Positions 1-10,200 of a stretch of 10,200 nucleotides of DNA are shown here, piece by piece. Numbering within the stretch: the first letter of the stretch is position 1; every line of letters starts with the position of its first letter. This DNA comes from an uncultured Deinococcales bacterium (lineage in GTDB: Bacteria > Deinococcota > Deinococci > Deinococcales > JAAFIG01), in contig CAXTTL010000177.1 in NCBI GenBank assembly GCA_964247135.1, positions 1 through 10,200 of the forward strand. Direction: 5' to 3'. The notes beneath the pieces are model-generated. The model had not been told where the DNA came from. It searched no databases and was given only the letters and a program-made list of their open reading frames with translations. Made by a program: the position numbers and the translations under genes.

Positions 1-578
1 GTATTTGGCATGAGATCAGCAATTTTCTTGTCGAATTCGGTGTACACGCCCGTAGGTTGAATCAGGCTGACCTCAATGCCAAAACTTTGCACTTCAAAGC
101 GCAATGCGTCGGTGATACTCTCCAGCGCCCATTTGCTGGCATGGTACGCCCCCGCGCCTGGGGCGGTGAAAGTACCACCAATCGAACCAACATTGATGAT
201 GCGACCAAAATGGTGTTGACGCATGGTTGGCAAAACCAGTTGGGTTAAACGCACCAAACCAAAAACGTTGGTTTCAAACTGATGCCGTAGTTTATCCAAC
301 TCGAGTTCCTCGATGGGTCCGTTCAAACCGTATCCGGCGTTGTTCACCAATACGTCTATTCTGCCGTGACGCTCGAGAATTGTTTCAACGGCAGTTTGCA
401 TGGATGTCTCCAAAGTGACATCCAATTCAAGGATTTCGCAACCAATATTTTGAAGTGGCATCAGTGTCTCGAGACGCCTCGATGTGGCGTAAGTGGTGAA
501 ACCGTTTTGGACAAATTGTTCGGCTGTGGCGCGTCCAATACCACTTGCTGCGCCTGTGATGAGTGCGACTTTTTGCAT
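1..578 (-). CDS. Short-chain dehydrogenase/reductase (SDR), 3' end runs off the window; missing from the ORF track
   Basis: Manual translation from ATG at 578: MQKVALITGAASGIGRATA (TGxxxGIG), then DVLVNNAGYG, IINVGS, YHASK (YxxxK). AAGGA RBS upstream. Confidence 0.95.
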   Translation of the reverse strand, partial: MQKVALITGAASGIGRATAEQFVQNGFTTYATSRRLETLMPLQNIGCEILELDVTLETSMQTAVETILERHGRIDVLVNNAGYGLNGPIEELELDKLRHQFETNVFGLVRLTQLVLPTMRQHHFGRIINVGSIGGTFTAPGAGAYHASKWALESITDALRFEVQSFGIEVSLIQPTGVYTEFDKKIADLMPN

Positions 579-594
579 GGAGTCCTTTCATTAA

Positions 595-610
595 GTAAAC
601 ATACGTTTAC
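595..610. promoter_or_regulatory. Putative TetR operator 1 (GTAAAC-N4-GTTTAC)
   Basis: Perfect 6-bp inverted repeat between divergent SDR and tetR, at the predicted SDR transcription start. Confidence 0.7.
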
Positions 611-616
611 ATAATG

Positions 617-645
617 AATCTAGCCCAGGAATTCGGGTTTGTCAA
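617..645 (-). promoter_or_regulatory. Sigma70-type promoter for the SDR
   Basis: Minus strand TTGACA (645-640), 17 nt, TAGATT (622-617). Confidence 0.7.
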
Positions 646-667
646 CAGGTGTTTACAAATGTAGAAT
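639..667 (+). promoter_or_regulatory. Sigma70-type leaderless promoter for tetR, overlapping putative operator 2 (TTGTCAAC-N4-GTTTACAA, 639-658)
   Basis: TTGTCA (639-644), 17 nt, TAGAAT (662-667), 6 nt, ATG at 674. Confidence 0.7.
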
Positions 668-673
668 CAATTG

Positions 674-1231
674 ATGCCAGAACCGCGACCACGCAACGCC
701 GACGCCACTCGAGCCAGCATTCTGAGTGCTGCCAGAAACTTGTTCGCGCAAAGTGGCTACGACGGCATCAGCTTGCGCGACATTGCCAACCAAGCCCAGT
801 GCAACGTGGCACTCGTCTCGAGGTACTTTGGCGGCAAAGACGAACTCTTTCTGGAAGCCGTATCAGAAGGATTTAATCTCGCCGACATTGCCAATACTGA
901 ACGCCAAGATTTCGGACAAAATCTTGCGCAATACATTCTTTCCAAACGCCAACGTGGGGCGCTCGAGCCACTGCAAGCCTTACTGCGTTCCACAAGTAAT
1001 CCCAAGGCAACAGCATTGATGCAAAATATTCTCGAGACACAGTTCATTGCGCCACTTGCCTATTGGCTTGGCGGTGAAAACGCAAAACTTCGCGCCGCTA
1101 CCATCGCCTCAATCATCATTGGTGTTGCCACCACACGCGATGTTCTCGAAAGCCCAAGTTTTTTAAAACCAAGCCTCGAGAAAAGTATCGAAACCATCGC
1201 GCCTTTGATTCAAGCCTTGGTAGACGCATAA
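674..1231 (+). CDS. TetR/AcrR family transcriptional regulator
   Basis: N-terminal HTH: ATRASILSAARNLFAQSGYDGISLRDIANQAQCNVALVSRYFGGKDELF. ATG 674 preferred over TTG 671 on -10 spacing. Confidence 0.95.
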   Translation: MPEPRPRNADATRASILSAARNLFAQSGYDGISLRDIANQAQCNVALVSRYFGGKDELFLEAVSEGFNLADIANTERQDFGQNLAQYILSKRQRGALEPLQALLRSTSNPKATALMQNILETQFIAPLAYWLGGENAKLRAATIASIIIGVATTRDVLESPSFLKPSLEKSIETIAPLIQALVDA

Positions 1232-1992
1232 ATCAAAGTTTCAGTTGAAGGTGCTGTAACGCTCGAGTTTAAAGGCTTATAAGCTTGATTTGCCCTCACC
1301 AACAACCACGCTCTGACATCCAATTCTTTGGCAAAATGCGCCACAGGCACAACGTTGGGCAGTGTAATCCCAATTTGTTCCGCCATTGTGTTCTCGAGAA
1401 TCTGCGCTTCACAAGCCTGCAACGACCAAGGTTGATGCAGAATATCCCCGCGATAAACCGTACCTCGAGCGTCAGAACTGAACAAACAATAGCGTTCAGT
1501 CAACCAATGCTCGAGGGTGCCTGGTGCGGCGTGAAAGACTTCGCCGACGGGTTTGTATTTGGCTTTGAAAGTTGCGGCTGGCGCGTTGCGGTGCGTGCGG
1601 AAACTCGAGTAATCCAACCAACCATTCTCAATTCGAGATGACATTTTTGCATCCATGTACGGCAGATGAAACGCAACCCGAGCGCCACGAACCGCCAATG
1701 GATTCTCGGCATCCAAACTGAAAAACCAGACGCCCGAACGCACACCGTCCGTGACATAGGTGCGCAAGTTCAACTCGAGAAACGCGTCCGTGCCAGGAAT
1801 CGGTGGCAAGCCTCGAGCGTGAATTTGATTCATGCGAAACGGCACGACGCCCAACCAGGCGTGACCCTCAAACGTCTCGAGTTTCAAACCCTTGGGAATG
1901 AATTTCTCGAGGCTAGCGACTGGCACAGGATAATGCAAGAACGCCAAATCGAGCCAGCGCATGTGCATGACCCAAAGGCGATCAGGTTTCAT
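1210..1992 (-). CDS. DUF2071 / YqjF family protein
   Basis: Motifs WLDLAFLHYPV, AWLGVVPF, ELNLRTYV, GVWFFSLDA, WLTERYCLF, HQPWSLQ. ATG 1992 overlaps the upstream stop (ATGA). Confidence 0.9.
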   Translation of the reverse strand: MKPDRLWVMHMRWLDLAFLHYPVPVASLEKFIPKGLKLETFEGHAWLGVVPFRMNQIHARGLPPIPGTDAFLELNLRTYVTDGVRSGVWFFSLDAENPLAVRGARVAFHLPYMDAKMSSRIENGWLDYSSFRTHRNAPAATFKAKYKPVGEVFHAAPGTLEHWLTERYCLFSSDARGTVYRGDILHQPWSLQACEAQILENTMAEQIGITLPNVVPVAHFAKELDVRAWLLVRANQAYKPLNSSVTAPSTETLIYASTKA

Positions 1993-2396
1993 TGCGCGTC
2001 GAGAAACCTTGCGCGAAGTTCTGGGGTCGGCAACCAACACGCCTCGCGCTTGCCAAAAATGTTGTAGCGGTAACGCCCGATGAAGTTATAAACCGTGTCG
2101 CGCAAGAATTTGGGGACAATTTTGAACGCGCTCAACCAAGACCATTTTGCGGGAAGCTGCCGCAAAATCTCGAGCACCGCGTCCGACCTCGTGTAAACCT
2201 TGTCACCTTCGATCAAAACCACGGTATTCATTCCAGGTAAACCATGAAGCTCGAGCAACTTCTTGCCCGCCTCGGATTGCTGTGAGGCGAATTGGAACAC
2301 CCCAGCGCGGTCATTGCTGATGATAAATTGCACCACACCGTTGCAAAGGTTGCACACGCCATCGAACAAAACAATGGTCTTTCCAGCGTCATTCAC
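1989..2396 (-). CDS. DCC family (DUF393/YuxK-like) thiol-disulfide oxidoreductase
   Basis: VLFDGVCNLC (DxxCxxC), FASQQS, C-terminal RYNIFGKREAC..P.PELRARF. GTG start 6 nt after TAAACT. Confidence 0.93.
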   Translation of the reverse strand: MNDAGKTIVLFDGVCNLCNGVVQFIISNDRAGVFQFASQQSEAGKKLLELHGLPGMNTVVLIEGDKVYTRSDAVLEILRQLPAKWSWLSAFKIVPKFLRDTVYNFIGRYRYNIFGKREACWLPTPELRARFLDAQ

Positions 2397-2462
2397 GACT
2401 TAAGTTTACTCAACTCGAGTTTTTAAAACCAGAGTTGGAAGTCCCCGCGTTAAACTGAGGTT

Positions 2463-3554
2463 ATGAACGATCCAATCCTCAAAAAATGGGCTGACCTGCT
2501 CTGCGATTACTGCTTTCAAATTCAAGCTGGGCAAAGTTTGATGCTCGATGCCAACAGCGAAGCCTTGCCACTCGTGCGCGAACTTCACAACGCGCTGCTC
2601 GAGCGCGGCGCGTATCCAATTCTCAAACTCGAGTATCCCGAGCAGCGTTCAGACTTTTATGCTTACGCCACGGACGCTCTTCTGGACAAGGTTTCTCAAG
2701 CCGAAATCGCGCAAATGCAAGCCATTGATGCGTACCTGGCGATTCGTGCCAGCAGCAACAGCGCGGCACTCTCGAATGTTGACCCTGAAAAACAAACTCG
2801 AGTCTTGCGTGCCAACAACGAACTTCGTAAGGCTCGAGAGGGTAAACCCTGGTGCGTGACGCTCTACCCAACCCAGGCTTACGCCCAAGATGCGGGCATG
2901 AACTTGGCGCAACTCGAGCAATTTATGTTTGGCGCAATGTTCTTAGACCGTGCCGACCCTGTTGCCGCCTGGGGCGAAATTCGTGCCATGCAAGCCGAAC
3001 TGATCCTGAAGCTCGAGCAAGCCAAAACCGTCAAACTCGAGGCGAACGGCACAGACTTAACGCTCGAGGTGACAAACCGCATTTGGCGCAATTCCGACGG
3101 CAAACGCAACATGCCAAGCGGTGAGGTTTTCACAGGTCCACTCGAGATGAGCGCCAACGGGGTGGTATTTTTTACGATTCCAAGTATGGTGAATGGTGTG
3201 GAGGTCAGCAATGTCAGGCTCGAGTTTAAAGACGGCAAAGTCATTGCCGCCAGTGCCGAAAAAGGCGATGCCTACTTGCAACGCGCCCTCGAGACGGATG
3301 AAGGCTCGAGGTTCTTGGGCGAACTTGGCATCGGCACGAATTTTGGGATTCAACGAAGCATCAAAAACATTTTGTTTGACGAGAAAATTGGTGGCACGGT
3401 GCATTTGGCGCTCGGCAACAGCTACCCCGAAACGCTCGGCACGAACCAAAGCGCACTTCACTGGGATTTGATTCTTGACATGCGCCCGAATGCGGGTGGT
3501 GGACGGATTTTACTGGATAGAAACGTGTTCGCGGAGAACGGAAAATTTGTTTAA
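2463..3554 (+). CDS. Aminopeptidase, peptidase M29 family (AmpT/AmpS/PepS-like)
   Basis: NMPSGEVFTGP, LGELGIGTN, LFDEKIGGTVHLALG, SALHWDL motifs. TAAACT-N6-ATG upstream. Confidence 0.93.
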   Translation: MNDPILKKWADLLCDYCFQIQAGQSLMLDANSEALPLVRELHNALLERGAYPILKLEYPEQRSDFYAYATDALLDKVSQAEIAQMQAIDAYLAIRASSNSAALSNVDPEKQTRVLRANNELRKAREGKPWCVTLYPTQAYAQDAGMNLAQLEQFMFGAMFLDRADPVAAWGEIRAMQAELILKLEQAKTVKLEANGTDLTLEVTNRIWRNSDGKRNMPSGEVFTGPLEMSANGVVFFTIPSMVNGVEVSNVRLEFKDGKVIAASAEKGDAYLQRALETDEGSRFLGELGIGTNFGIQRSIKNILFDEKIGGTVHLALGNSYPETLGTNQSALHWDLILDMRPNAGGGRILLDRNVFAENGKFV

Positions 3555-3596
3555 CTCGAGCTTTAACAAGAATTGACCAAGGTGTAAGATAAAAGC

Positions 3597-4100
3597 ATGT
3601 CATTGCCGTATGATTATTTAATCACCGAAGCCGAGCGTTTTAACGTCAGGCTCGAGATCATTGCTGGGGCGACAGTCTGGGAATCCAGTCCAGTTTTTAG
3701 ACATCAATGGGAAGTGAAACGAATTGCCAACTCTTTGCGCCCACTGGCAGACTCGAGTTGTGCATGTATCGAAACACAAGACACGTTGTTTAAATTTCCT
3801 GATGGTTCACTGAAACGCCCCGACATTGCCCTGCTTTGCACCATGCCAGACCTCGAGACTGCGGATGCTGCCCTCGAGTTGATTCCAACGGCGGTGATCG
3901 AAATTATCTCTAAAAATTACGAGTACAAAGACGTTGTGCTCGCACCACCGTTTTACCTGTCACAAGGCGTGCAAGACATTTTGATTTTCAACCCAGCCGA
4001 CAAATCCGTACTGCACTACCGACCCGATCTCGAGCAACCAAAAACCTACATTTCACCCATCACTTTGAATCTCGAGTGCGGGTGTGAAATTACGGTGTAA
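3597..4100 (+). CDS. Uma2 family PD-(D/E)XK endonuclease-fold protein
   Basis: EIIAG..SP..RHQ, KRPDIA, PTAVIEIIS, FYLSQGV. TAAGAT-N6-ATG upstream. Confidence 0.88.
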   Translation: MSLPYDYLITEAERFNVRLEIIAGATVWESSPVFRHQWEVKRIANSLRPLADSSCACIETQDTLFKFPDGSLKRPDIALLCTMPDLETADAALELIPTAVIEIISKNYEYKDVVLAPPFYLSQGVQDILIFNPADKSVLHYRPDLEQPKTYISPITLNLECGCEITV

Positions 4101-4142
4101 TAGATTTGCCCGAGTGACGATGCTCGAGATCACACCTGAATC

Positions 4143-5153
4143 TTGGCGGTTGCAAGTTACACTTTTGTGGTGAACCCCGAATTGCACGCGAGCATGGCTG
4201 GACGTGGCAACCCTTATGCCATGTTAACCGATGCTCGAAAATTGTTGCTCTACGCCCTGCACAATGCCGCTCCTGATGCAATCCAAAACATTCAGGGTGA
4301 AACTGAATTAAAACCCTTGGTTGAAGCATCTCTTGTCAAACAATGCGCGGATGGAACGTACCGTCCAACATTTTTCATCGCAGATGCACACGAGGTTGAA
4401 CGGGTGAATCATCAAGCTCGAGAGACAGGTCTTCAATTGGCGGCACGAGTCAAAATGTCTTGGAGTACATTGCAAAGCGCATTTGCAAAGTTGCATGTCA
4501 GTGAAAAGTTTTCTTTTGCAGAACAGGCTTTTTTTCTGGTTGGCGATTGTGTCCTCGATGTGGGCTTGCTGAATGCGCTGGCTCGAGATGGCAATTTATT
4601 GACACCAGCCCACGCCCGTCTCAGTCCAAATTTTCCAGAGGCACGCTATTGCTTTTGGATGATTGAAGGCGATGCCGATTCATTGGGGTGTTATGGACAA
4701 CGTTACACGCCTTTACCGTGGCATCATTGGACATTGTTGACTTTCGAGCGTTACCGCACAAAGTCTCAACCCATCACTTCGCGCTCTACACTCGAGCAAC
4801 ACCTACAGCAACTTGCCCCAACCGTTCCCAATGCCACAGCTTTGGGTCGCAGGGCAGCATTGGCGACGTACAATTCTCAAGCGGTCATGCTTTGGGAACA
4901 GACAACCCGTCCACTTTGCAATGATTTGGTACAAGTTTACAACCGTGAACAGACCCACCTCAAAACCCTGTTCGCAAGTTGTCACTCGAGCATATATGCT
5001 CCTGAAAGCTTCGGCGATTTCTTTTGCTGGTATGACCATCTTGCCTATGCTCATGCGATTGATGAATTGATCGCAACAGGCTATTTAGAATTGCCACAAT
5101 CAGGTTTTACAACCGCATTGTGGTACACAATCCCGAAATTCGCGGCTTTTTGA
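4143..5153 (+). CDS. Hypothetical protein, start uncertain, possibly 5' frameshifted
   Basis: 336-codon ORF filling the gap between two Uma2 genes; no family recognised; TTG start lacks an RBS and follows an in-frame TGA at 4137. Confidence 0.7.
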   Translation: MAVASYTFVVNPELHASMAGRGNPYAMLTDARKLLLYALHNAAPDAIQNIQGETELKPLVEASLVKQCADGTYRPTFFIADAHEVERVNHQARETGLQLAARVKMSWSTLQSAFAKLHVSEKFSFAEQAFFLVGDCVLDVGLLNALARDGNLLTPAHARLSPNFPEARYCFWMIEGDADSLGCYGQRYTPLPWHHWTLLTFERYRTKSQPITSRSTLEQHLQQLAPTVPNATALGRRAALATYNSQAVMLWEQTTRPLCNDLVQVYNREQTHLKTLFASCHSSIYAPESFGDFFCWYDHLAYAHAIDELIATGYLELPQSGFTTALWYTIPKFAAF

Positions 5154-5180
5154 AGTGAAATCACCGCGCTCGAGATTTCA

Positions 5181-5197
5181 GATTTGCTCGAGTGGTG
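5181..5197 (+). repeat. 17-bp direct repeat GATTTGCTCGAGTGGTG, copy 1
   Basis: Identical to 5772-5788; degenerate copy at 4102-4116. Confidence 0.85.
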
Positions 5198-5210
5198 CTA
5201 GAATTTTGGC

Positions 5211-5792
5211 ATGACCCTTGCTGCCGTGGAAGCAAATCAAAATCCACCAGAAATTCAGCGTCGTCGTTTCACGCTCGAGGAATTTGAACGCCTGAGCGAC
5301 CTGGGTTTGATTGCCGAACAACACGCGGAATTGCTGAACGGAGAGATTTACGTGAAAGGAATGCAAAGTCTTAGACACGCTTATACCATCGTGGCACTGA
5401 CCGAAAAAATGATGGCGCTCTACCAAAATCGAGTTTCTGTTGCCGCGCAAATCCCACTGATTTTGCTTTCGCCACCACCCGATTTTGTCGAACCAGACAT
5501 CATGTTGCGCAACCTGCCAACACAACAATACGCAACCCAAAACGCCAACTCCGAAGATGCCAAATTGGTTTTTGAAGTCAGCGATTCAACCCTCGAGCGT
5601 GACCAAACCGAAAAACTCAAAGCCTATGCCCGAAATGGCATTCCCGAGTATTGGATTCTGAATTTGCACCATAAACAACTCGAGGTTTACCGCGAACCAA
5701 GCGGCGAGGAATACTTGTTCATCCGCAAGTACAAAGCTGGTCAAGCGGTTGCGGCACTCGAGTTTCCTGATGATTTGCTCGAGTGGTGGTAA
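5211..5792 (+). CDS. Uma2 family PD-(D/E)XK endonuclease-fold protein
   Basis: RRFTLEEF, ELLNGEI, EPDIML, VFEVSDSTLERD..EKLKAYARNGIPEYWILNL. TGc-TAGAAT-N6-ATG upstream. Confidence 0.93.
   Translation: MTLAAVEANQNPPEIQRRRFTLEEFERLSDLGLIAEQHAELLNGEIYVKGMQSLRHAYTIVALTEKMMALYQNRVSVAAQIPLILLSPPPDFVEPDIMLRNLPTQQYATQNANSEDAKLVFEVSDSTLERDQTEKLKAYARNGIPEYWILNLHHKQLEVYREPSGEEYLFIRKYKAGQAVAALEFPDDLLEWW
5772..5788 (+). repeat. 17-bp direct repeat GATTTGCTCGAGTGGTG, copy 2
   Basis: Identical to 5181-5197; encodes the Uma2 C-terminus DLLEW. Confidence 0.85.
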
Positions 5793-5794
5793 GT

Positions 5795-6793
5795 TCAAAC
5801 ACCCAACATAAACTCGAGCGAATCCGCCAGCCCATTGCGCCACGTCACCCAGTTGTGACCGCTTGGACGCTCGAGGTAACGGTGCGCGTACTTTTTGTCG
5901 AACAACATGGCGGCAAAACGTCGGTTCGCGCCAAGCAACCACTCGAGTTGCCCACATTCGAGCGAGAAGCGAATGGGCAGTGGCTCGAGGTTCTGAAATT
6001 GGGTTAACAACCATTCCGCCGCACCGCGTTTGTATAGTTCGGTCGGAACACCTTGAAACGCGCCAGATTGCGAGACGACCAAACCGAAAACGTCTGGGCG
6101 TAGCATGGCGGCATAAACGCTTGCCATGCCGCCCAAACTCGCGCCCCACAATCCTCGAGTGGCGGCTTCTTTGGAGACTGGGAACTTCGATTCAATTTCT
6201 GGCAGGGCTTCGGTCAACAAAAACTCGAGATACTGCGGGTTCAGGTGATACTCGAGGGTGCGGTCATTCGGCTCGAGGAAGACCAAAATCGCGGGTTGAA
6301 TGCGCTCGAGGTGCAACAAGTTTTCCATCACGCTGCCAAGTTTGCCAGTGCGACGGTATGCCACGCCATCTTGCACGTAAAACACTGGGTACACTCGAGT
6401 TTCATCGAAGTTTGGCGGCAGGTGAACGTATGCCCGCCGTGTGCCTGCAAAAACCTTGCCAGCCCAACTGAGCGACACCGTGCGCCCTTTTGCGGCATCG
6501 GTCAGGGGTTCACGCAAAGGATGCGCTTCGTAACCCTCGAGAATCGCGGCACGACCGTACTTGTACCAAGGGTTTTCAGCCCAAACCTCATTGTCAGGAT
6601 CGGCAAACGGCGTGCCATGTTCATCCAGAAAGGCGTACTCGACAAATGCGCCTTTGGGAAACTCGAGCGTGACTGAACTTCCAACCTCGAGCTTGATGGG
6701 TTTGTCCAAACCGTCGGTGAAATCGCCGATCAGGGCGTGAGCGTGTTCTGGCGCGGTAAAAGTGACCTGGTTTTTAAGAATCTGAATCGGCAT
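5795..6793 (-). CDS. Alpha/beta hydrolase, enterochelin-esterase-like, with a small N-terminal beta domain
   Basis: VHLPPNFD..YPVFYVQDG, GASLGG nucleophile elbow, SQSG, GHNW. ATG 6793 lies 7 nt after TATATT; the longer ORF-track start crosses the rpsI terminator. Confidence 0.9.
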   Translation of the reverse strand: MPIQILKNQVTFTAPEHAHALIGDFTDGLDKPIKLEVGSSVTLEFPKGAFVEYAFLDEHGTPFADPDNEVWAENPWYKYGRAAILEGYEAHPLREPLTDAAKGRTVSLSWAGKVFAGTRRAYVHLPPNFDETRVYPVFYVQDGVAYRRTGKLGSVMENLLHLERIQPAILVFLEPNDRTLEYHLNPQYLEFLLTEALPEIESKFPVSKEAATRGLWGASLGGMASVYAAMLRPDVFGLVVSQSGAFQGVPTELYKRGAAEWLLTQFQNLEPLPIRFSLECGQLEWLLGANRRFAAMLFDKKYAHRYLERPSGHNWVTWRNGLADSLEFMLGV

Positions 6794-6823
6794 TGACACG
6801 AATATAACCCGCAACACGGCAAC

Positions 6824-6850
6824 AAAAAACCCTCGAGATTCTCGAGGGTT
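6824..6850 (-). terminator. Intrinsic terminator of rplM-rpsI
   Basis: Minus strand AACCCTCGAG-AAT-CTCGAGGGTT followed by TTTTGTT, 20 nt after the rpsI stop. Confidence 0.85.
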
Positions 6851-6869
6851 CTGAATTTCTGAATTGGTC

Positions 6870-7262
6870 TTAACGCTTGGAGAATTGTGGCGCACGACGG
6901 GCTTTTTTCAAACCGTACTTCTTACGCTCGACTTCCCTCGAATCGCGTGAAAGCAAACCGGCTGGTTTGAGTTTCGCACGGTTGTCGGCATCAATGCGCA
7001 CCAAAGCGCGAGCCAAACCGAGTTTGATCGCATCGGCTTGACCGGTCGGACCGCCGCCTTCAACGGTGATGGTCGCGTCAAAACGACCCGCTGCACCCGT
7101 CACGCGCAAAGGCTCGAGGGCTTGAACGGCTTTGATGATGCCACGGAAGTAATCTTGGAAATCTTTGCCGTTGACGGTAATGCTACCCTCGCCATTGCGA
7201 AGGAACACGCGAGCAACGCTGGACTTGCGGCGTCCTGTGCCGTAAAAAGATTCAACGGTCAT
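6870..7262 (-). CDS. rpsI: 30S ribosomal protein S9
   Basis: [43 protein letters not shown]. Confidence 0.99.
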
Positions 7263-7711
7263 TCTTTCACCTCGTACTTGGCGTGTGGCAACTCGAGCTT
7301 GACAGGTTTTTGCGCGGCGTGCGGGTGGTTCTCGCCGCGAAAGACTTTGAGGTGCGTGTGGAGCGAACGACCGAGACGACCTTTTGGCAACATACCGAAC
7401 ACGGCGTGTTCGATCATGCGCTCTGGGTGCTTTTCAATCGCAATGCGGGCGGTCTCTTTTTTCAAACCACCCTGGTAGCCCGTGTAACGGGTGTAAACCT
7501 TGGTGTCGAGCTTGCCGCCGGTCAACACGACTTTTTCGGCGTTCAAGACAATCACAAAATCGCCATTGGCGAGTTGCGGGGTGTAATCGGGTTTGTGTTT
7601 GCCACGAATGAGCGTCGCAATGCTGGTCGCCAGACGACCCAGTGTCAACCCAGTCGCGTCAATCACGACCCAGTTGGCTTCGGTTCTTTGGGGAAGGTAA
7701 GTTTTGAACAC
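7259..7711 (-). CDS. rplM: 50S ribosomal protein L13
   Basis: [44 protein letters not shown] 7711 has a GGAGG RBS 7 nt upstream; ATGA overlap with rpsI. Confidence 0.98.
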
Positions 7712-7860
7712 GAGGTATCCTCCGAAATCCAAACAAAAATGCTTGGAATGGTTTGCCACTTTTCAGGTCCGTACCGATTTTCGGGGGAATATCCATCGGA
7801 CTGTTTCGGAGGGCGACTCCGAGGATCGTACCCCTACCAAGGTTACGACACCGAATTGAG

Positions 7861-7889
7861 ATAGTATCACGACTTTCTCGAGATGACAA
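7861..7889 (-). promoter_or_regulatory. rplM-rpsI promoter
   Basis: Minus strand TTGTCA (7889-7884), 17 nt, TACTAT (7866-7861) with extended TGn; implies a leader of about 140 nt. Confidence 0.7.
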
Positions 7890-8104
7890 ATGCGGGTAAA
7901 ATCTCGAGTAGCACAAGTTCAATGCGAATCTCGAGGTTTGAAACTAGCATTTTGTCAGGCTCAAGGATATTGTGGAAGCTCGAGGTTCTAAATTGAGAAA
8001 TCGTTGTGCTCGAGGATGAACACATTCTTAACAATAAGACGCACCTGACGGGCATTGTCGCAGGTTCACCCCTACACTCAAGGTGGTTTCGTGGTTTTTT
8101 GCTC

Positions 8105-8133
8105 TTCCAAGAAATGCCTTCATGGTGTACACT
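8105..8133 (+). promoter_or_regulatory. Candidate rplY promoter
   Basis: TTCCAA, 17 nt, TACACT; a second TACACT lies at 8073-8078. Confidence 0.45.
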
Positions 8134-8174
8134 TCCAAGGCTGCCTGAAAAAACGGGCGTTGGAGGAATCACAA

Positions 8175-8780
8175 ATGGAATTAAATGTCTTTGACCGTTC
8201 GCAAAAAACCAGTGCCTTACGCGCTGATGGAATGCTGCCCGCAGTGGTGTACGACAAGAAAAGCAACCGCTCAATTTACCTCGAGCGCAAAGCCTTCGAT
8301 AAGGTTTTTCGTGCCGTCAGCACCCACGGTGTCATCACCCTCAAATTCGAGAACGGTGACAGCCTCGAGACGCTGGTCAAAGCCGTGGCGATGGACAAGC
8401 GCAAGCGCATCCCAGAACATGCCGATTTTATCATCGTGTCCGATGAACCCGTCGAGGTTGTCGTACCGATTCACACCAAAGGCGTTGCCAAAGGCGTGAA
8501 AGACCAAGGCGGCGTGCTTGACATTGTGCTGCACACCCTGACCATCAAATGCTCACCGAAAAACATTCCACAAGAACTTGTTGTGGACATCAGCGACGTG
8601 GGCTTGGGTCAACCCGTTCACGCCAGCGACGTTGTGCTTCCAGAGGGCGTCAAGCTCGTCTCGGATGCCAAAGCCACAGTCTTGACCATTCATCAACCGC
8701 GCGGTGCGGAAAACGTTGCCGCCGTCGTTGCTGGCACAGAACCGGAAGTCATCACCAAAGGCAAGAAAGAAGCCGAGTAA
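8175..8780 (+). CDS. rplY: 50S ribosomal protein L25 / general stress protein Ctc (long form)
   Basis: LRADGMLPAVVY, HADF, VVPIHTKG..KGVKDQGG, IPQELVVDIS, EPEVITKGKKE. GGAGG RBS; adjacent to pth. Confidence 0.95.
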   Translation: MELNVFDRSQKTSALRADGMLPAVVYDKKSNRSIYLERKAFDKVFRAVSTHGVITLKFENGDSLETLVKAVAMDKRKRIPEHADFIIVSDEPVEVVVPIHTKGVAKGVKDQGGVLDIVLHTLTIKCSPKNIPQELVVDISDVGLGQPVHASDVVLPEGVKLVSDAKATVLTIHQPRGAENVAAVVAGTEPEVITKGKKEAE

Positions 8781-8803
8781 ACTCGAATCACCTCGAGATT
8801 TTG

Positions 8804-8828
8804 GAGCGCTCTTTCGGGCGCTCTTTTT
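8804..8828 (+). terminator. Intrinsic terminator after rplY
   Basis: GAGCGCTC-TTTC-GGGCGCTC followed by TTTTT. Confidence 0.8.
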
Positions 8829-8856
8829 GTTGGAGTACAGTGTTATTGGAGTCATC

Positions 8857-9477
8857 ATGAGCATTCAATTGATTGTCGGACTGGGCAACCCAGGCGTTTT
8901 GTACGCCAAAACCAGGCACAACATTGGTTTTATGGTGCTCGAGGAACTCGCACGTCGGGCGAACTTGAGTTTTAGCAAGAAACCAAACCTCGAGTTGACC
9001 GAATGGCGCGTTGGGGCTGGGAAATTGCATTTGATGAAACCGCTCACCTTCATGAATTTGTCTGGAAATGCCGTTGTGCCGTTCGCAAAATTTCACAAAC
9101 TCGAAGCCCACCAAATTCTGGTCGTACACGACGATCTGGACTTGCCTTTTGGGCGGTTACGCTTTCGACTTGGCGGCTCGAGTGGCGGGCAGAACGGCGT
9201 GAAAGACATTACCTCCAAACTCGGCACGGATGCTTTCGTGCGCTTGAAAGTCGGCATCTCGAGACCCCCTGAAGGTTGGGAGGTCGTGAACTGGGTGCTC
9301 TCAGGGTTTCAAGCCACGGAAACCGCAATACTTGAGCAAGTCATCAAAACGGCTGCTGATGCGGTGATTGGCGCGACTCGAGATGGGTTTGCCAAAGCGC
9401 AAGCTGATTTTAACGGCACGGATTTACGACCAAAACCAGAACCTGTTATTGCTGAAACTCGAGCAGAAGGCAGTTAG
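8857..9477 (+). CDS. pth: Peptidyl-tRNA hydrolase
   Basis: LIVGLGNPG..YAKTRHNIGF, KPLTFMNLSG, VVHDDLDLPFG, GSSGGQNG. GGAG RBS before ATG 8857. Confidence 0.97.
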   Translation: MSIQLIVGLGNPGVLYAKTRHNIGFMVLEELARRANLSFSKKPNLELTEWRVGAGKLHLMKPLTFMNLSGNAVVPFAKFHKLEAHQILVVHDDLDLPFGRLRFRLGGSSGGQNGVKDITSKLGTDAFVRLKVGISRPPEGWEVVNWVLSGFQATETAILEQVIKTAADAVIGATRDGFAKAQADFNGTDLRPKPEPVIAETRAEGS

Positions 9478-9482
9478 GCATT

Positions 9483-9491
9483 TGGTATAAT
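9483..9491 (+). promoter_or_regulatory. Extended -10 promoter for the DUF2200 gene
   Basis: TGG-TATAAT, consensus TGnTATAAT. Confidence 0.65.
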
Positions 9492-9535
9492 CAAGCCATT
9501 GGCAAGTACGTGTACTTCAACCCAACGGAGGAATG

Positions 9536-9892
9536 ATGAAAAACGACTACCGCATCCCCACCATGAAATTCTCGGGTGTCTATCCGCTTTATGTTGCCAA
9601 AGTGGAACGCAAGAACCGCACCCGAGCAGAAGTTGACCAGGTGATCTGCTGGCTGACCGGCTACAGCGAGGACGGTTTACAAGAGCAGATTGACAACAAA
9701 AGTGACTTCCAGACATTTTTTGCTGAGGCTCCGGCGATTCATCCAAATCGTTCGCTGATTAAAGGCGTCGTTTGTGGTGTGCGCGTGGAAGACATTGAGG
9801 ATTCTTTGGTGCAGAACGTGCGATACTTGGACAAACTGATTGATGAACTCGCCAAGGGGAAAGCCCTCGAAAAGGTGCTGCGGCAAGCTTAA
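9536..9892 (+). CDS. DUF2200 family protein
   Basis: [65 protein letters not shown]; start 9533 or 9536. Confidence 0.92.
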
Positions 9893-10200
9893 ACCGCTTT
9901 GATCGGCAGTGGAAACACCGCGCCCGTTTTCGGTTCGCTGCCAATCCAAACTTCAACCCCGTACAATTCGCGCAACAATTGAGGTTGCAGCACCTCGAGC
10001 GGCGTGCCATCGGCAACCACTTTCGCGCCGTTCAGGGCAATGACGCGGTCAACCCTCGAGGCATAAGGCAGGTCGTGGGCGATAAAAATGATGCTCGAGC
10101 CGCCCGCTGCGCGTTCTTGCAAGGTTTCGAGCAGGCGCATTTGGTAGCGTGGGTCGAGTCCTGAGAGTGGTTCGTCAAGCAGCAAAATCTTGGTTTCTCG
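9889..10200 (-). CDS. ABC transporter ATP-binding protein (iron-siderophore/heme/cobalamin type), 3' part only
   Basis: Walker B/D-loop [13 protein letters not shown]-switch AHDL, tail [15 protein letters not shown] typical of FecE/HmuV-like ATPases. Confidence 0.9.

Follow-up and report, generated by a model that had tools for sequence, protein, structure and literature searches.

Why does one six-base palindrome recur every 120 bp or so along a stretch of ordinary bacterial genes? The stretch, hereafter the window, comprises 10,200 bases (51.2% G+C) of contig C177 in assembly G000, which derives from an uncultured Deinococcales bacterium, and the palindrome is CTCGAG. We find that CTCGAG is a real highly iterated palindrome (HIP), of the class known from cyanobacteria, and that it is carried by a whole uncultured Deinococcales family. 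The hyperabundance itself is certain. What the sites are for is approached here by analogy: we favour, at a probability of roughly 40%, that CTCGAG may be a 'self' tag for the exchange of DNA or its recombinational repair.

An iterated palindrome in the window and throughout the genome

A sequence-only reading of the window had put CTCGAG at about 85 copies, one per ~120 bp. The exact count is 85, the first copy starting at position 300 and the last occupying 10094-10099, and every coordinate listed in that reading was confirmed. It had also placed this number far above chance, rightly so: dinucleotide-preserving shuffles of the window (n = 200) contained 1.76 copies on average and 6 at most, with 0 of 200 reaching 85, and the base composition predicts 2.6. 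TCGA occurs 123 times, 85 of them within CTCGAG and 38 in other contexts, with 39.7 expected from composition; the earlier estimate for these other contexts, 35-40 and near chance, was thus accurate. ORFs (open reading frames) were called crudely, by greedy choice among the longest of at least 120 amino acids, and the caller is imperfect in that it chose a shadow ORF in place of the L13 gene; by these calls, 47 copies are read as CTC-GAG, 14 in frame +1 and 11 in frame +2, all three frames being used as had been stated, and 13 fall outside ORFs. The motif was further said to sit in most intergenic gaps, and 5 of the 8 inter-ORF gaps hold at least one copy, the three without measuring 2, 2, and 20 bp.

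The whole assembly (5,091,702 bases in 386 contigs with a median of 9.3 kb, 84% complete, 52.7% G+C) contains 33,925 copies, that is 6.66 per kb or about one per 150 bases, and their 203,550 bases make up 4.0% of it. With 1,371 copies expected from composition, or 963 under a first-order Markov model, this is a 25-35-fold excess. CTCGAG is the top hexamer of the genome, the next-ranked words being its own overlaps; it is 5.7 times as frequent as the commonest unrelated hexamer, which averages 5,979, and the runner-up among palindromes, TTTAAA, occurs 3,272 times. Over all 386 contigs the lowest density is 2.56 per kb, and each of 825 windows of 5 kb holds at least 8 copies (mean 33.3). The enrichment is thus genome-wide and, with its presence in 19 of 19 genomes of the family (see below), family-wide, rather than confined to one contig. 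An order-4 Markov observed/expected ratio (1.24) was discarded as uninformative, because the conditioning 5-mers are themselves produced by the motif.

Nor do codon and dipeptide usage account for the excess. ORFs carry 6.52 copies per kb (17,126, 4,438, and 6,477 in the three frames), as compared to 7.38 per kb in the 802,032 bases of non-ORF DNA. Shuffling synonymous codons within genes (n = 5) left 3,817-3,947 copies, some 3,900, as against the 27,960 observed in ORFs, so that a 7-fold excess remains under a control that is conservative because both the protein and the motif-inflated codon usage are retained. The motif has left its mark on the proteome: Leu-Glu is the most over-used dipeptide (22,200 versus 9,296 expected, 2.39 times), while Glu-Leu is at expectation in the ORFs of the genome (9,451). 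CTCGAG is present at 17,075 of the 22,200 Leu-Glu positions, at 6,466 of 13,914 x-Ser-[Ser/Arg] positions, and at 4,419 of 10,179 [SPTA]-Arg-[EDGAV] positions, and hence occupies 43-77% of the places that the protein permits. The 18 variants one substitution away (9 strand-paired forms) occur at 0.5-1.74 times expectation, except for the CTAG-containing one at 0.08, with transitions highest; by position, the ratio is 0.96-1.74 for outer changes that leave the TCGA core intact and 0.08-1.17 for inner ones. TCGA outside CTCGAG stands at ~1.1 times expectation.

Spacing, flanks, and placement along genes

The sites are spaced more evenly than chance would have it. Relative to an exponential distribution, raw spacings are in deficit both below 20 bp (1,355 versus 2,901) and at 400-800 bp (1,544 versus 2,108). 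Under a stricter null, in which the usable positions carrying the motif are permuted within gene and frame and overlaps are forbidden, the ratio of observed to null spacings is 0.41 at 7-14 bp, 0.78 at 15-29 bp, 1.09-1.13 at 60-180 bp, and 0.79-0.86 at 400 bp or more, with small standard deviations.

Was the signal exactly 6 bp long, as had been claimed? The hexamer core stands; its strict limit does not, for the flanks show weak, symmetric base preferences out to about +/-4. In non-ORF DNA, 42% of sites have A at -3 versus 25.5% in the background; 33% have A at -2, 35% have G at -1, and 31% have G at -4. This flank preference explains why sites peak 2 nt past TAA and TGA stop codons. Along genes, density stays level from the start through the body, and for 30 bp past the stop codon it is twice as high (12.3 copies per kb, genome-wide).

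The motif-poorest long genes fall into two groups, one of low-GC genes that are defence-like or have no known function, the other of genes for membrane or transport proteins. Two long genes hold no copy at all: a reverse transcriptase-trypsin fusion (G000:C4 51606-53234, 35% G+C) and an AAA_16 ATPase (G000:C70 14265-16157, 26% G+C), both of which look like recently acquired defence genes. The poverty of such low-GC genes argues that the motif accumulates in resident DNA.

In the window itself, the genes are ordinary (SDR, TetR regulator, DUF2071, M29 peptidase, two Uma2, esterase, L13, and peptidyl-tRNA hydrolase), and the sites lie among them as follows.

300..10099, both strands (palindrome): array of 85 CTCGAG, mean one per 120 bp (exact count and shuffles)
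2414..2419, unstranded: CTCGAG in the 66-bp inter-ORF gap 2397-2462 (exact position and ORF calls)
2463-3554, plus strand: M29 peptidase gene (PF02073, E 1.3e-81)
3012..3068, plus strand: three copies (3012, 3036, 3063) in frame as Leu-Glu (CTC GAG), at offsets 549, 573, and 600 in the M29 peptidase gene
3555..3560, unstranded: CTCGAG right after the peptidase stop codon, in the 42-bp gap 3555-3596 (exact position and ORF calls)
3597-4100 and 5211-5792, plus strand: two Uma2-family (PF05685) nuclease-fold genes (family match)
4123..4128, unstranded: CTCGAG in the 42-bp gap 4101-4142 (exact position and ORF calls)
5169..5192, unstranded: two CTCGAG (5169, 5187) in the 57-bp gap 5154-5210 (exact position and ORF calls)
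5795-6895, minus strand: esterase gene (PF00756, E 4e-27)
6224..6310, minus strand: four copies (6224, 6251, 6272, 6305) in frame as Leu-Glu, at offsets 666, 639, 618, and 585 from the esterase gene start
7877..8014, unstranded: five-copy cluster (7877, 7903, 7930, 7979, 8009) inside the minus-strand ORF 7867-8274 (exact positions)
8280..8369, unstranded: two CTCGAG (8280, 8364) in the 429-bp stretch 8275-8703, which has no called ORF (exact position)

Conservation of the sites between genomes

Are the sites kept over evolutionary time? Along the window region, species of the same genus share a site in 366 of 441 ordered comparisons, as compared to the 44% expected from 87% identity. An alignment of G000 with G005 (219,472 aligned bases, 85.0% identity) retains 1,227 of 1,536 CTCGAG sites (79.9%), as compared to 44.6% for the median hexamer and 60% for the 95th percentile; this ranks CTCGAG third of the 2,508 hexamers with at least 30 occurrences. 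In the same pair of genomes, 149 of 185 non-ORF sites are retained versus 36% expected, and third codon positions are 89-90% identical inside in-frame sites versus 71% generally. Codon by codon, CTC is retained at 88% inside the motif versus 54% outside, GAG at 87% versus 63%, CGA at 80% versus 50%, and TCG at 87% versus 60%. Site loss is about 4.7-fold slower than expected in non-ORF DNA, and preservation at the DNA level is ~4-5 times that of neighbouring bases. Between genera (70-74% identity), 113 of 208 sites are retained (54%) versus 15.8% of all hexamers, in alignments some of which may be paralogous, the DNA being 63-78% identical and synteny scattered.

Near-matches to the motif are short-lived by comparison. 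Between G000 and G005, the transition variants CTTGAG and CTCAAG are retained in just 8 of 59 and 5 of 36 cases, and CCCGAG and CTCGGG in 33 and 30 of 107 each. Where sites differ, the listed states comprise 132 single transitions and about 28 single transversions, at a background ratio of 1.4. The transition classes number 51, 45, and 36, the last being that of the CpG cytosine; since they are alike in size, the CpG cytosine is no hot spot, and there is no signature of 5-methylcytosine decay.

Retention also depends on the neighbourhood. Sites with a neighbour within less than 30 bp are retained in 238 of 321 cases, those with no neighbour within 150 bp in 138 of 159 (Fisher p 0.0014), and the effect of the gap that a loss opens stays positive with local flank identity as a covariate (permutation p 0.001). 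The sparser the copies, then, the more each one is worth. Even spacing and the better retention of isolated sites argue against a repair bias that is blind to neighbours, and for a coverage-dependent function or drive; they favour functions that depend on density, such as an uptake signal or a protein site, over local repair bias.

Two other sequence features surfaced in these alignments. The only hexamers retained better than CTCGAG between G000 and G005 are CATGCG and CGCATG (82% and 80%; n = 44 and 46), and several other CATG-containing words also rank high, though GCATGC is nearly absent from G000; this is probably the survivorship of a few constrained CATG sites. A dispersed 40-bp repeat (L139 6095-6134, in G005:C16) has many 89-98% identical copies in G007 and G010, several in G009, and 6 in G000 when up to 5 substitutions are allowed; it matched no tRNA and no Rfam entry.

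Distribution across the Deinococcales

Which other bacteria carry the motif? A search with the L13 protein returned five metagenome-assembled genome (MAG) records named 'Deinococcales bacterium' at 95-100% identity, followed by Deinococcus at 63-75%, in agreement with the Deinococcota lineage suggested from the sequence alone. The five MAG loci have 6.5-7.7 CTCGAG per kb at 50-53% G+C, and sixteen Deinococcus-type loci have 0-0.67. We then surveyed 201 Deinococcales genomes, whose sizes, and hence densities, rest on figures rounded by the search tool for the relatives of G000. The family of G000, f1, is represented by mostly incomplete MAGs (57-94% complete), G011 being closed.

Family f1 (5 genera), 19/19 genomes: 4.3-6.8 CTCGAG per kb; reverse word GAGCTC nearly absent (0-568 copies)
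Family f3 (large), 53 genomes: 0.01-0.27 CTCGAG per kb; resembles the named Deinococcus loci
Genus g9 (small genomes), 28 genomes: 0.6-1.6 CTCGAG per kb; close to its own GAGCTC count
All Deinococcales outside f1, 182/182 genomes: at most about 3.4 CTCGAG per kb

Several other lineages of the order show a weaker excess, at 5-12 times expectation. In samples of 8-40 kb, CTCGAG is again the top hexamer in G152, G128, G126, G168, and G025 (observed/expected 7.5-11.8), all five with a clear excess over synonymous shuffling, and it ranks 3-7 in G019, G147, G059, and G200. G022 has no excess, with 47 copies in ORFs versus 59 after synonymous shuffling. The trait thus occurs here and there in the order and is at its strongest in family f1.

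The Uma2 family (PF05685), represented twice in the window, is abundant in f1: 24 matches in G000 and 6-40 in each of the 18 other genomes (18/18). There are 33 in G019, 10-16 in genus g9, 0-1 in the CTCGAG-avoiding family f3, and 0 in family f4; the family is also expanded in cyanobacteria, the home of HIP1, according to the accessible part of an earlier paper (PMC1274311). As a correlate of the motif, Uma2 copy number is suggestive; we dropped it as a requirement, because f4 has 0 Uma2 and yet CTCGAG reaches 7.5 times expectation in its member G025. Two primer patterns found no 16S gene in G000, and a search of a sequencing-run index gave word shares of 5-7% at best, all from assembled contigs.

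Methyltransferases, nucleases, and Vsr

Could the sites be read through methylation? Following Elhai's model for HIPs, CTCGAG would be a methylation-centred housekeeping signal: a methyltransferase recognising CTCGAG or TCGA would mark the sites, the short hemimethylated phase that follows replication would guide mismatch repair, replication control, or gene regulation, and selection would have made the hexamer as dense as a 4-mer like the GATC of Dam. Much of the above fits. At one site per 150-230 bp, CTCGAG is about as dense as a random 4-mer would be; the regular spacing and the better retention of isolated sites suit a signal needed within reach of every base; and the one-off variants keep the TCGA core in the majority of cases, a pattern similar to what Elhai saw for HIP1. 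In the excerpted text of his survey, moreover, every HIP-bearing cyanobacterial genome has a matching methyltransferase (PMC4390886).

Candidates are not lacking, since G000 holds at least 11 DNA methyltransferase-like genes. For PF01555 there are three full enzymes, a contig-end fragment, and a weak partial match in a 465-aa protein; the others are two C5 enzymes, one of the Dam family, one HsdM-type, two MmeI-type, and one methylase-helicase fusion. Their target specificity cannot be read from sequence, and what can be followed is their occurrence. Among the 18 other f1 genomes (E<=1e-10; E<=1e-20 for L103), L099 and L103 have matches in 5 each, L105 in 6, L100 in 9, and L098 in 9 with none above 33% identity within the family, while the C5 enzyme L102 matches in 16, at 70% identity or more in only 3, and has no match in G008. 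None of these six G000 enzymes thus forms a family-wide ortholog group, which speaks against the methylation model. Three Pfam families, PF01555 and PF02384 among them, were searched in addition over five good f1 genomes: the closed genome G011 has no match to PF01555, and G009 none to the HsdM-type PF02384. The ~500-aa N6 enzymes are a diverse set (mutually 25-59% identical), and an HsdS gene adjoins 1 of the 7 N6-type enzymes inspected, six of which are HsdM-type. A family search did not find Vsr in G000, and transitions are not in excess at the CpG cytosine (36 versus 51 and 45). As far as a link to methylation had been proposed at the outset, these searches did not bear it out: neither a family-wide methyltransferase nor Vsr nor an XhoI nuclease was found. 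We consider the methylation model unlikely, if still a serious contender.

CTCGAG is the target of XhoI, which, in the absence of modification, would cut f1 genomes to fragments of roughly 150 bp. The XhoI nuclease family (PF04555) has no match in the 19 f1 genomes (57-94% complete), in a search that matched 6 of the 201 genomes of the order. One match is in G021 of family f4 (~1.7 CTCGAG per kb), where a complete XhoI-family nuclease adjoins a PF01555 methyltransferase (L190, in G021:C1; ORFs 1198-2136, plus strand, and 2073-3095, minus strand); judged by gene families and arrangement, this is likely a CTCGAG restriction-modification pair in a motif-rich relative. Its methyltransferase has 63%-identical homologues in G027 and G022 and no close homologue in f1, a further point against methylation by such an enzyme there.

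A separate observation concerns other palindromes, many of which are nearly absent from G000: GAGCTC (0), GGGCCC (1), CGGCCG (3), AGGCCT (4), CGTACG (5), GGATCC (7), CCGCGG (11), CAGCTG (15), and GCATGC (17), with the whole GRGCYC set almost missing (GAGCCC/GGGCTC 5). This points to heavy, long-standing restriction pressure on a genome that hoards one restriction site.

A possible 'self' tag for DNA exchange or recombinational repair

What else could make a genome hoard CTCGAG? Genes for handling DNA ends and for pili offer one lead. On contig C24 of G000 (L376), an AddA-like protein of 953 aa (UvrD helicase plus PD-(D/E)XK nuclease; 5924-8785, minus strand) adjoins an AddB-like protein of 935 aa (ADDB_N; 8749-11556, minus strand), a pair recognised by domain matches in G000, the one genome examined for it; to our knowledge, Deinococcus radiodurans has neither RecBC nor AddAB. 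G000 further encodes an 890-aa type IV pilus ATPase (PilB/PilF-type) with MshEN domains, an architecture that we take to be that of the Thermus transformation ATPase PilF.

Phages offer another. An IMG/VR scan (at least 120 stretches) returned mostly high-GC contigs among the matches listed, none of which combined ~50% G+C with a high CTCGAG density over more than 1.4 kb. Among these same matches, CTCGAG is the top hexamer in L350, L337, and L281, at 14-17 times expectation. L350 (14,155 bases) holds 73 copies versus 4.3 expected (17 times) and represents a structural module of a tailed phage, encoding tape measure, major tail protein, head-tail adaptor, and endolysin; unlike the f1 genomes, it also carries GAGCTC 29 times. 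An HK97 capsid gene was not found in G000.

We favour the 'self' tag because no conserved methyltransferase, nuclease, or Vsr was found, the motif builds up in resident DNA, a phage contig is rich in it, an AddAB pair and a transformation-type pilus ATPase are present, and HIP1 has been linked to transformation. How might such a tag work? The word is an exact palindrome and its weak flanks are symmetric, which points to a dimeric DNA-binding protein as the one that recognises it; taken with frame indifference and density dependence, this suggests a dimeric reader whose benefit saturates locally. Fragments or alleles bearing the tag would have an edge in binding, uptake, protection from AddAB-type end degradation, or recombination, and would then spread by molecular drive along with selection for coverage; methylation may or may not belong to the read-out. 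This mechanism has also been put forward for uptake sequences and, from 2024 on, for HIP1. Each copy would confer a small, roughly uniform advantage, scaled at ~ln(25-35) = 3.3, with diminishing returns as local density rises. A uniform scaled advantage of ~3.3 reproduces the excess, the several-fold slower loss, and the fast turnover of one-off variants.

Several points weigh against this reading. The link to DNA exchange, be it through uptake, protection, or recombination, is by analogy. Uptake sequences are 9-12 bp long, non-palindromic, and number about one per kb. Chi sites are oriented and only modestly enriched; CTCGAG, as a palindrome, cannot carry an orientation. ComEC and DprA were not found in G000, in crude motif screens whose matches were unrelated proteins. 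The DNA of L350 matched 0 of 201 Deinococcales genomes, and its proteins had no match in G000. The effect of HIP1 on transformation is, according to the accessible text of the report, methylation-dependent (bioRxiv 10.1101/2024.09.10.611283), and we found no conserved methyltransferase. Finally, even spacing and neighbour dependence fit methyl-directed repair, nucleoid binding, or any other density-dependent function equally well.

A narrower version can be put forward more tentatively still, as it falls well short of an even chance: a HIP without a dedicated methyltransferase, in which a family-wide 6-bp 'self' tag would be read directly by the recombination or uptake machinery and copied by the phages of the lineage. 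If true, HIP-type elements would serve bacteria at large in kin-biased DNA exchange or in protecting DNA ends, and would no longer be a peculiarity of cyanobacteria; the weaker versions in other Deinococcales lineages would offer an experimental route.

Other explanations

Alternatively, CTCGAG could be the binding site of an abundant nucleoid or chromosome-organising protein, with selection for coverage of the whole genome. The exact palindrome and its weak symmetric flanks would suit a dimeric binder just as well; the scarcity of 7-14 bp spacings (0.41 of the null) fits a footprint, and long gaps are in deficit too; isolated sites are retained best, coding and non-coding DNA both carry the motif, and for HIP1 a nucleoid role has been argued by Xu et al. 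2018, as far as the excerpted text goes (PMC5861425). That the equally rich phage contig is not accounted for by a nucleoid function alone counts against it, and we identified no candidate protein. We know of no nucleoid protein that needs a strict hexamer every 150 bp. On balance, we regard a nucleoid site as improbable.

A context-free mutational or repair bias, akin to very short patch (VSP) repair or biased gene conversion, would convert near-matches to CTCGAG wherever they appear and leave sites that have no function. Consistent with such a bias, the excess is blind to frame and has driven amino-acid changes (Leu-Glu 2.4 times over-used), transition variants one step away do not last (CTTGAG 8/59 and CTCAAG 5/36 versus the 44.6% median), and differences at sites are rich in transitions (about 132 versus about 28, the background ratio being 1.4). 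A local bias should ignore neighbours, yet the spacing is regular and isolated sites are retained better; nor are the one-off variants depleted genome-wide (0.5-1.74, except the CTAG-containing one), and Vsr was not found in G000. This makes a functionless bias very improbable.

That base composition, codon choice, or dipeptide usage produces the motif count, or that assembly created it, has a negligible chance of being right: CTC and GAG are favoured codons in high-GC relatives and explain part of the counts there (G022, 47 versus 59 shuffled), but this reading is refuted in G000 by non-ORF DNA that is richer than ORFs, by the 7-fold excess over conservative synonymous shuffles, by Glu-Leu that is not enriched and a reverse word, GAGCTC, that occurs 0 times, and across f1 by the same excess in 19 separate assemblies, one of them closed, at conserved positions.

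Comparison with known systems

How does CTCGAG, as a presumptive 'self' tag, compare with words of known or suspected function? Uptake signal sequences (USS) of the Pasteurellaceae and DNA uptake sequences (DUS) of the Neisseriaceae are lineage-specific, evenly spaced, present in thousands of copies, imprinted on the proteome, rare in new DNA, and independent of a methyltransferase. CTCGAG shares with them the even spacing, the imprint on the proteome (Leu-Glu), and the scarcity in newly acquired DNA, and differs from them in being a 6-bp palindrome with weak flanks at 6.7 copies per kb. Chi, the short over-represented 'self' word of RecBCD and AddAB, protects DNA ends and promotes recombination; it is oriented, strand-skewed, and enriched few-fold. 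Here, the likeness lies in the AddAB-type gene pair of G000, and in the Chi-like role that has been suggested for HIP1 in the part of that work available; the difference lies in a word that is its own reverse complement and in 25-35-fold excess. The XhoI/PaeR7I target consists of the same six bases, but restriction targets are normally avoided. In the neighbouring family f3, CTCGAG is found at only 0.01-0.27 per kb.

In the searchable literature (subscription journals, supplements, and REBASE being outside the search), we found no description of CTCGAG as a highly iterated or over-represented bacterial palindrome, and the belief that this motif has no characterised mechanism held. Among the matches listed, CTCGAG as 'overrepresented' led to eukaryotic, viral, or tabular mentions only; CTCGAG with Meiothermus gave no meaningful match, and HIP1 with Deinococc* unrelated papers only. 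Work on 'highly iterated palindrom*' since 2015 concerned, in the excerpts of the matches listed, cyanobacteria, cyanophage, and cyanobacterial proteins only, and CTCGAG does not appear in Elhai 2015 (PMC4390886).

The closest parallel, then, is HIP1 (GCGATCGC) of cyanobacteria. CTCGAG has the marks of the class: an excess over the whole genome, use of every frame as well as non-coding DNA, and stronger conservation than control words, or its codons elsewhere, show. The HIP1-like character proposed from the window alone was upheld, as abundance, use of all frames, non-coding presence, and conservation beyond codons agree in every property testable. HIP1, too, is a hyper-abundant palindrome found in coding and non-coding DNA and conserved beyond control words, in the excerpted account of Xu et al. 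(PMC5861425), and its function is unsettled. The same excerpts base a nucleoid role for HIP1 on a large-scale (10-90 kb) periodicity of sites (PMC5861425). Other partial accounts state that HIP1 sites increase natural transformation, perhaps by a role in uptake or in the manner of Chi (bioRxiv 10.1101/2024.09.10.611283), and that HIP1 abundance correlates with pilus and competence genes (PMC13756078).

The differences are equally telling. HIP1 is an octamer in cyanobacteria, CTCGAG a hexamer in a different phylum; in G000, HIP1 itself is nearly absent (CGATCG occurs 47 times in the genome, and GCGATCGC 0 times in loci L001-L005). Set against the figures excerpted from Elhai's survey, CTCGAG is more numerous (about 6,700 copies per Mb versus 300-2,700) and its fold excess smaller (25-35 versus 55-228) (PMC4390886). 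A cognate methyltransferase was found in every HIP genome there, and no conserved one was found here (PMC4390886); this apparent lack challenges the leading, methylation-based model. The same partial text describes alternate HIPs, among them GGCGCC of Calothrix PCC 7103, a 6-bp palindrome that dominates its genome in place of HIP1; these have at least 75% G+C, about 1,000-2,000 copies per Mb, and each a matching methyltransferase (PMC4390886). CTCGAG, at 67% G+C, is 3-6 times denser than the alternate HIPs and spans a family of 5 genera.

HIP1 has been known for three decades, only in cyanobacteria, and a link between its function and natural transformation is only now emerging. CTCGAG provides a second, independent HIP case, in another phylum and with another word, that is 3-20 times as dense as HIP1, strong enough to reshape the proteome, and conserved across five genera. 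With an adjacent large family that is nearly without the site, it also offers a natural contrast by which the driver and the reader of such words become testable by comparison.

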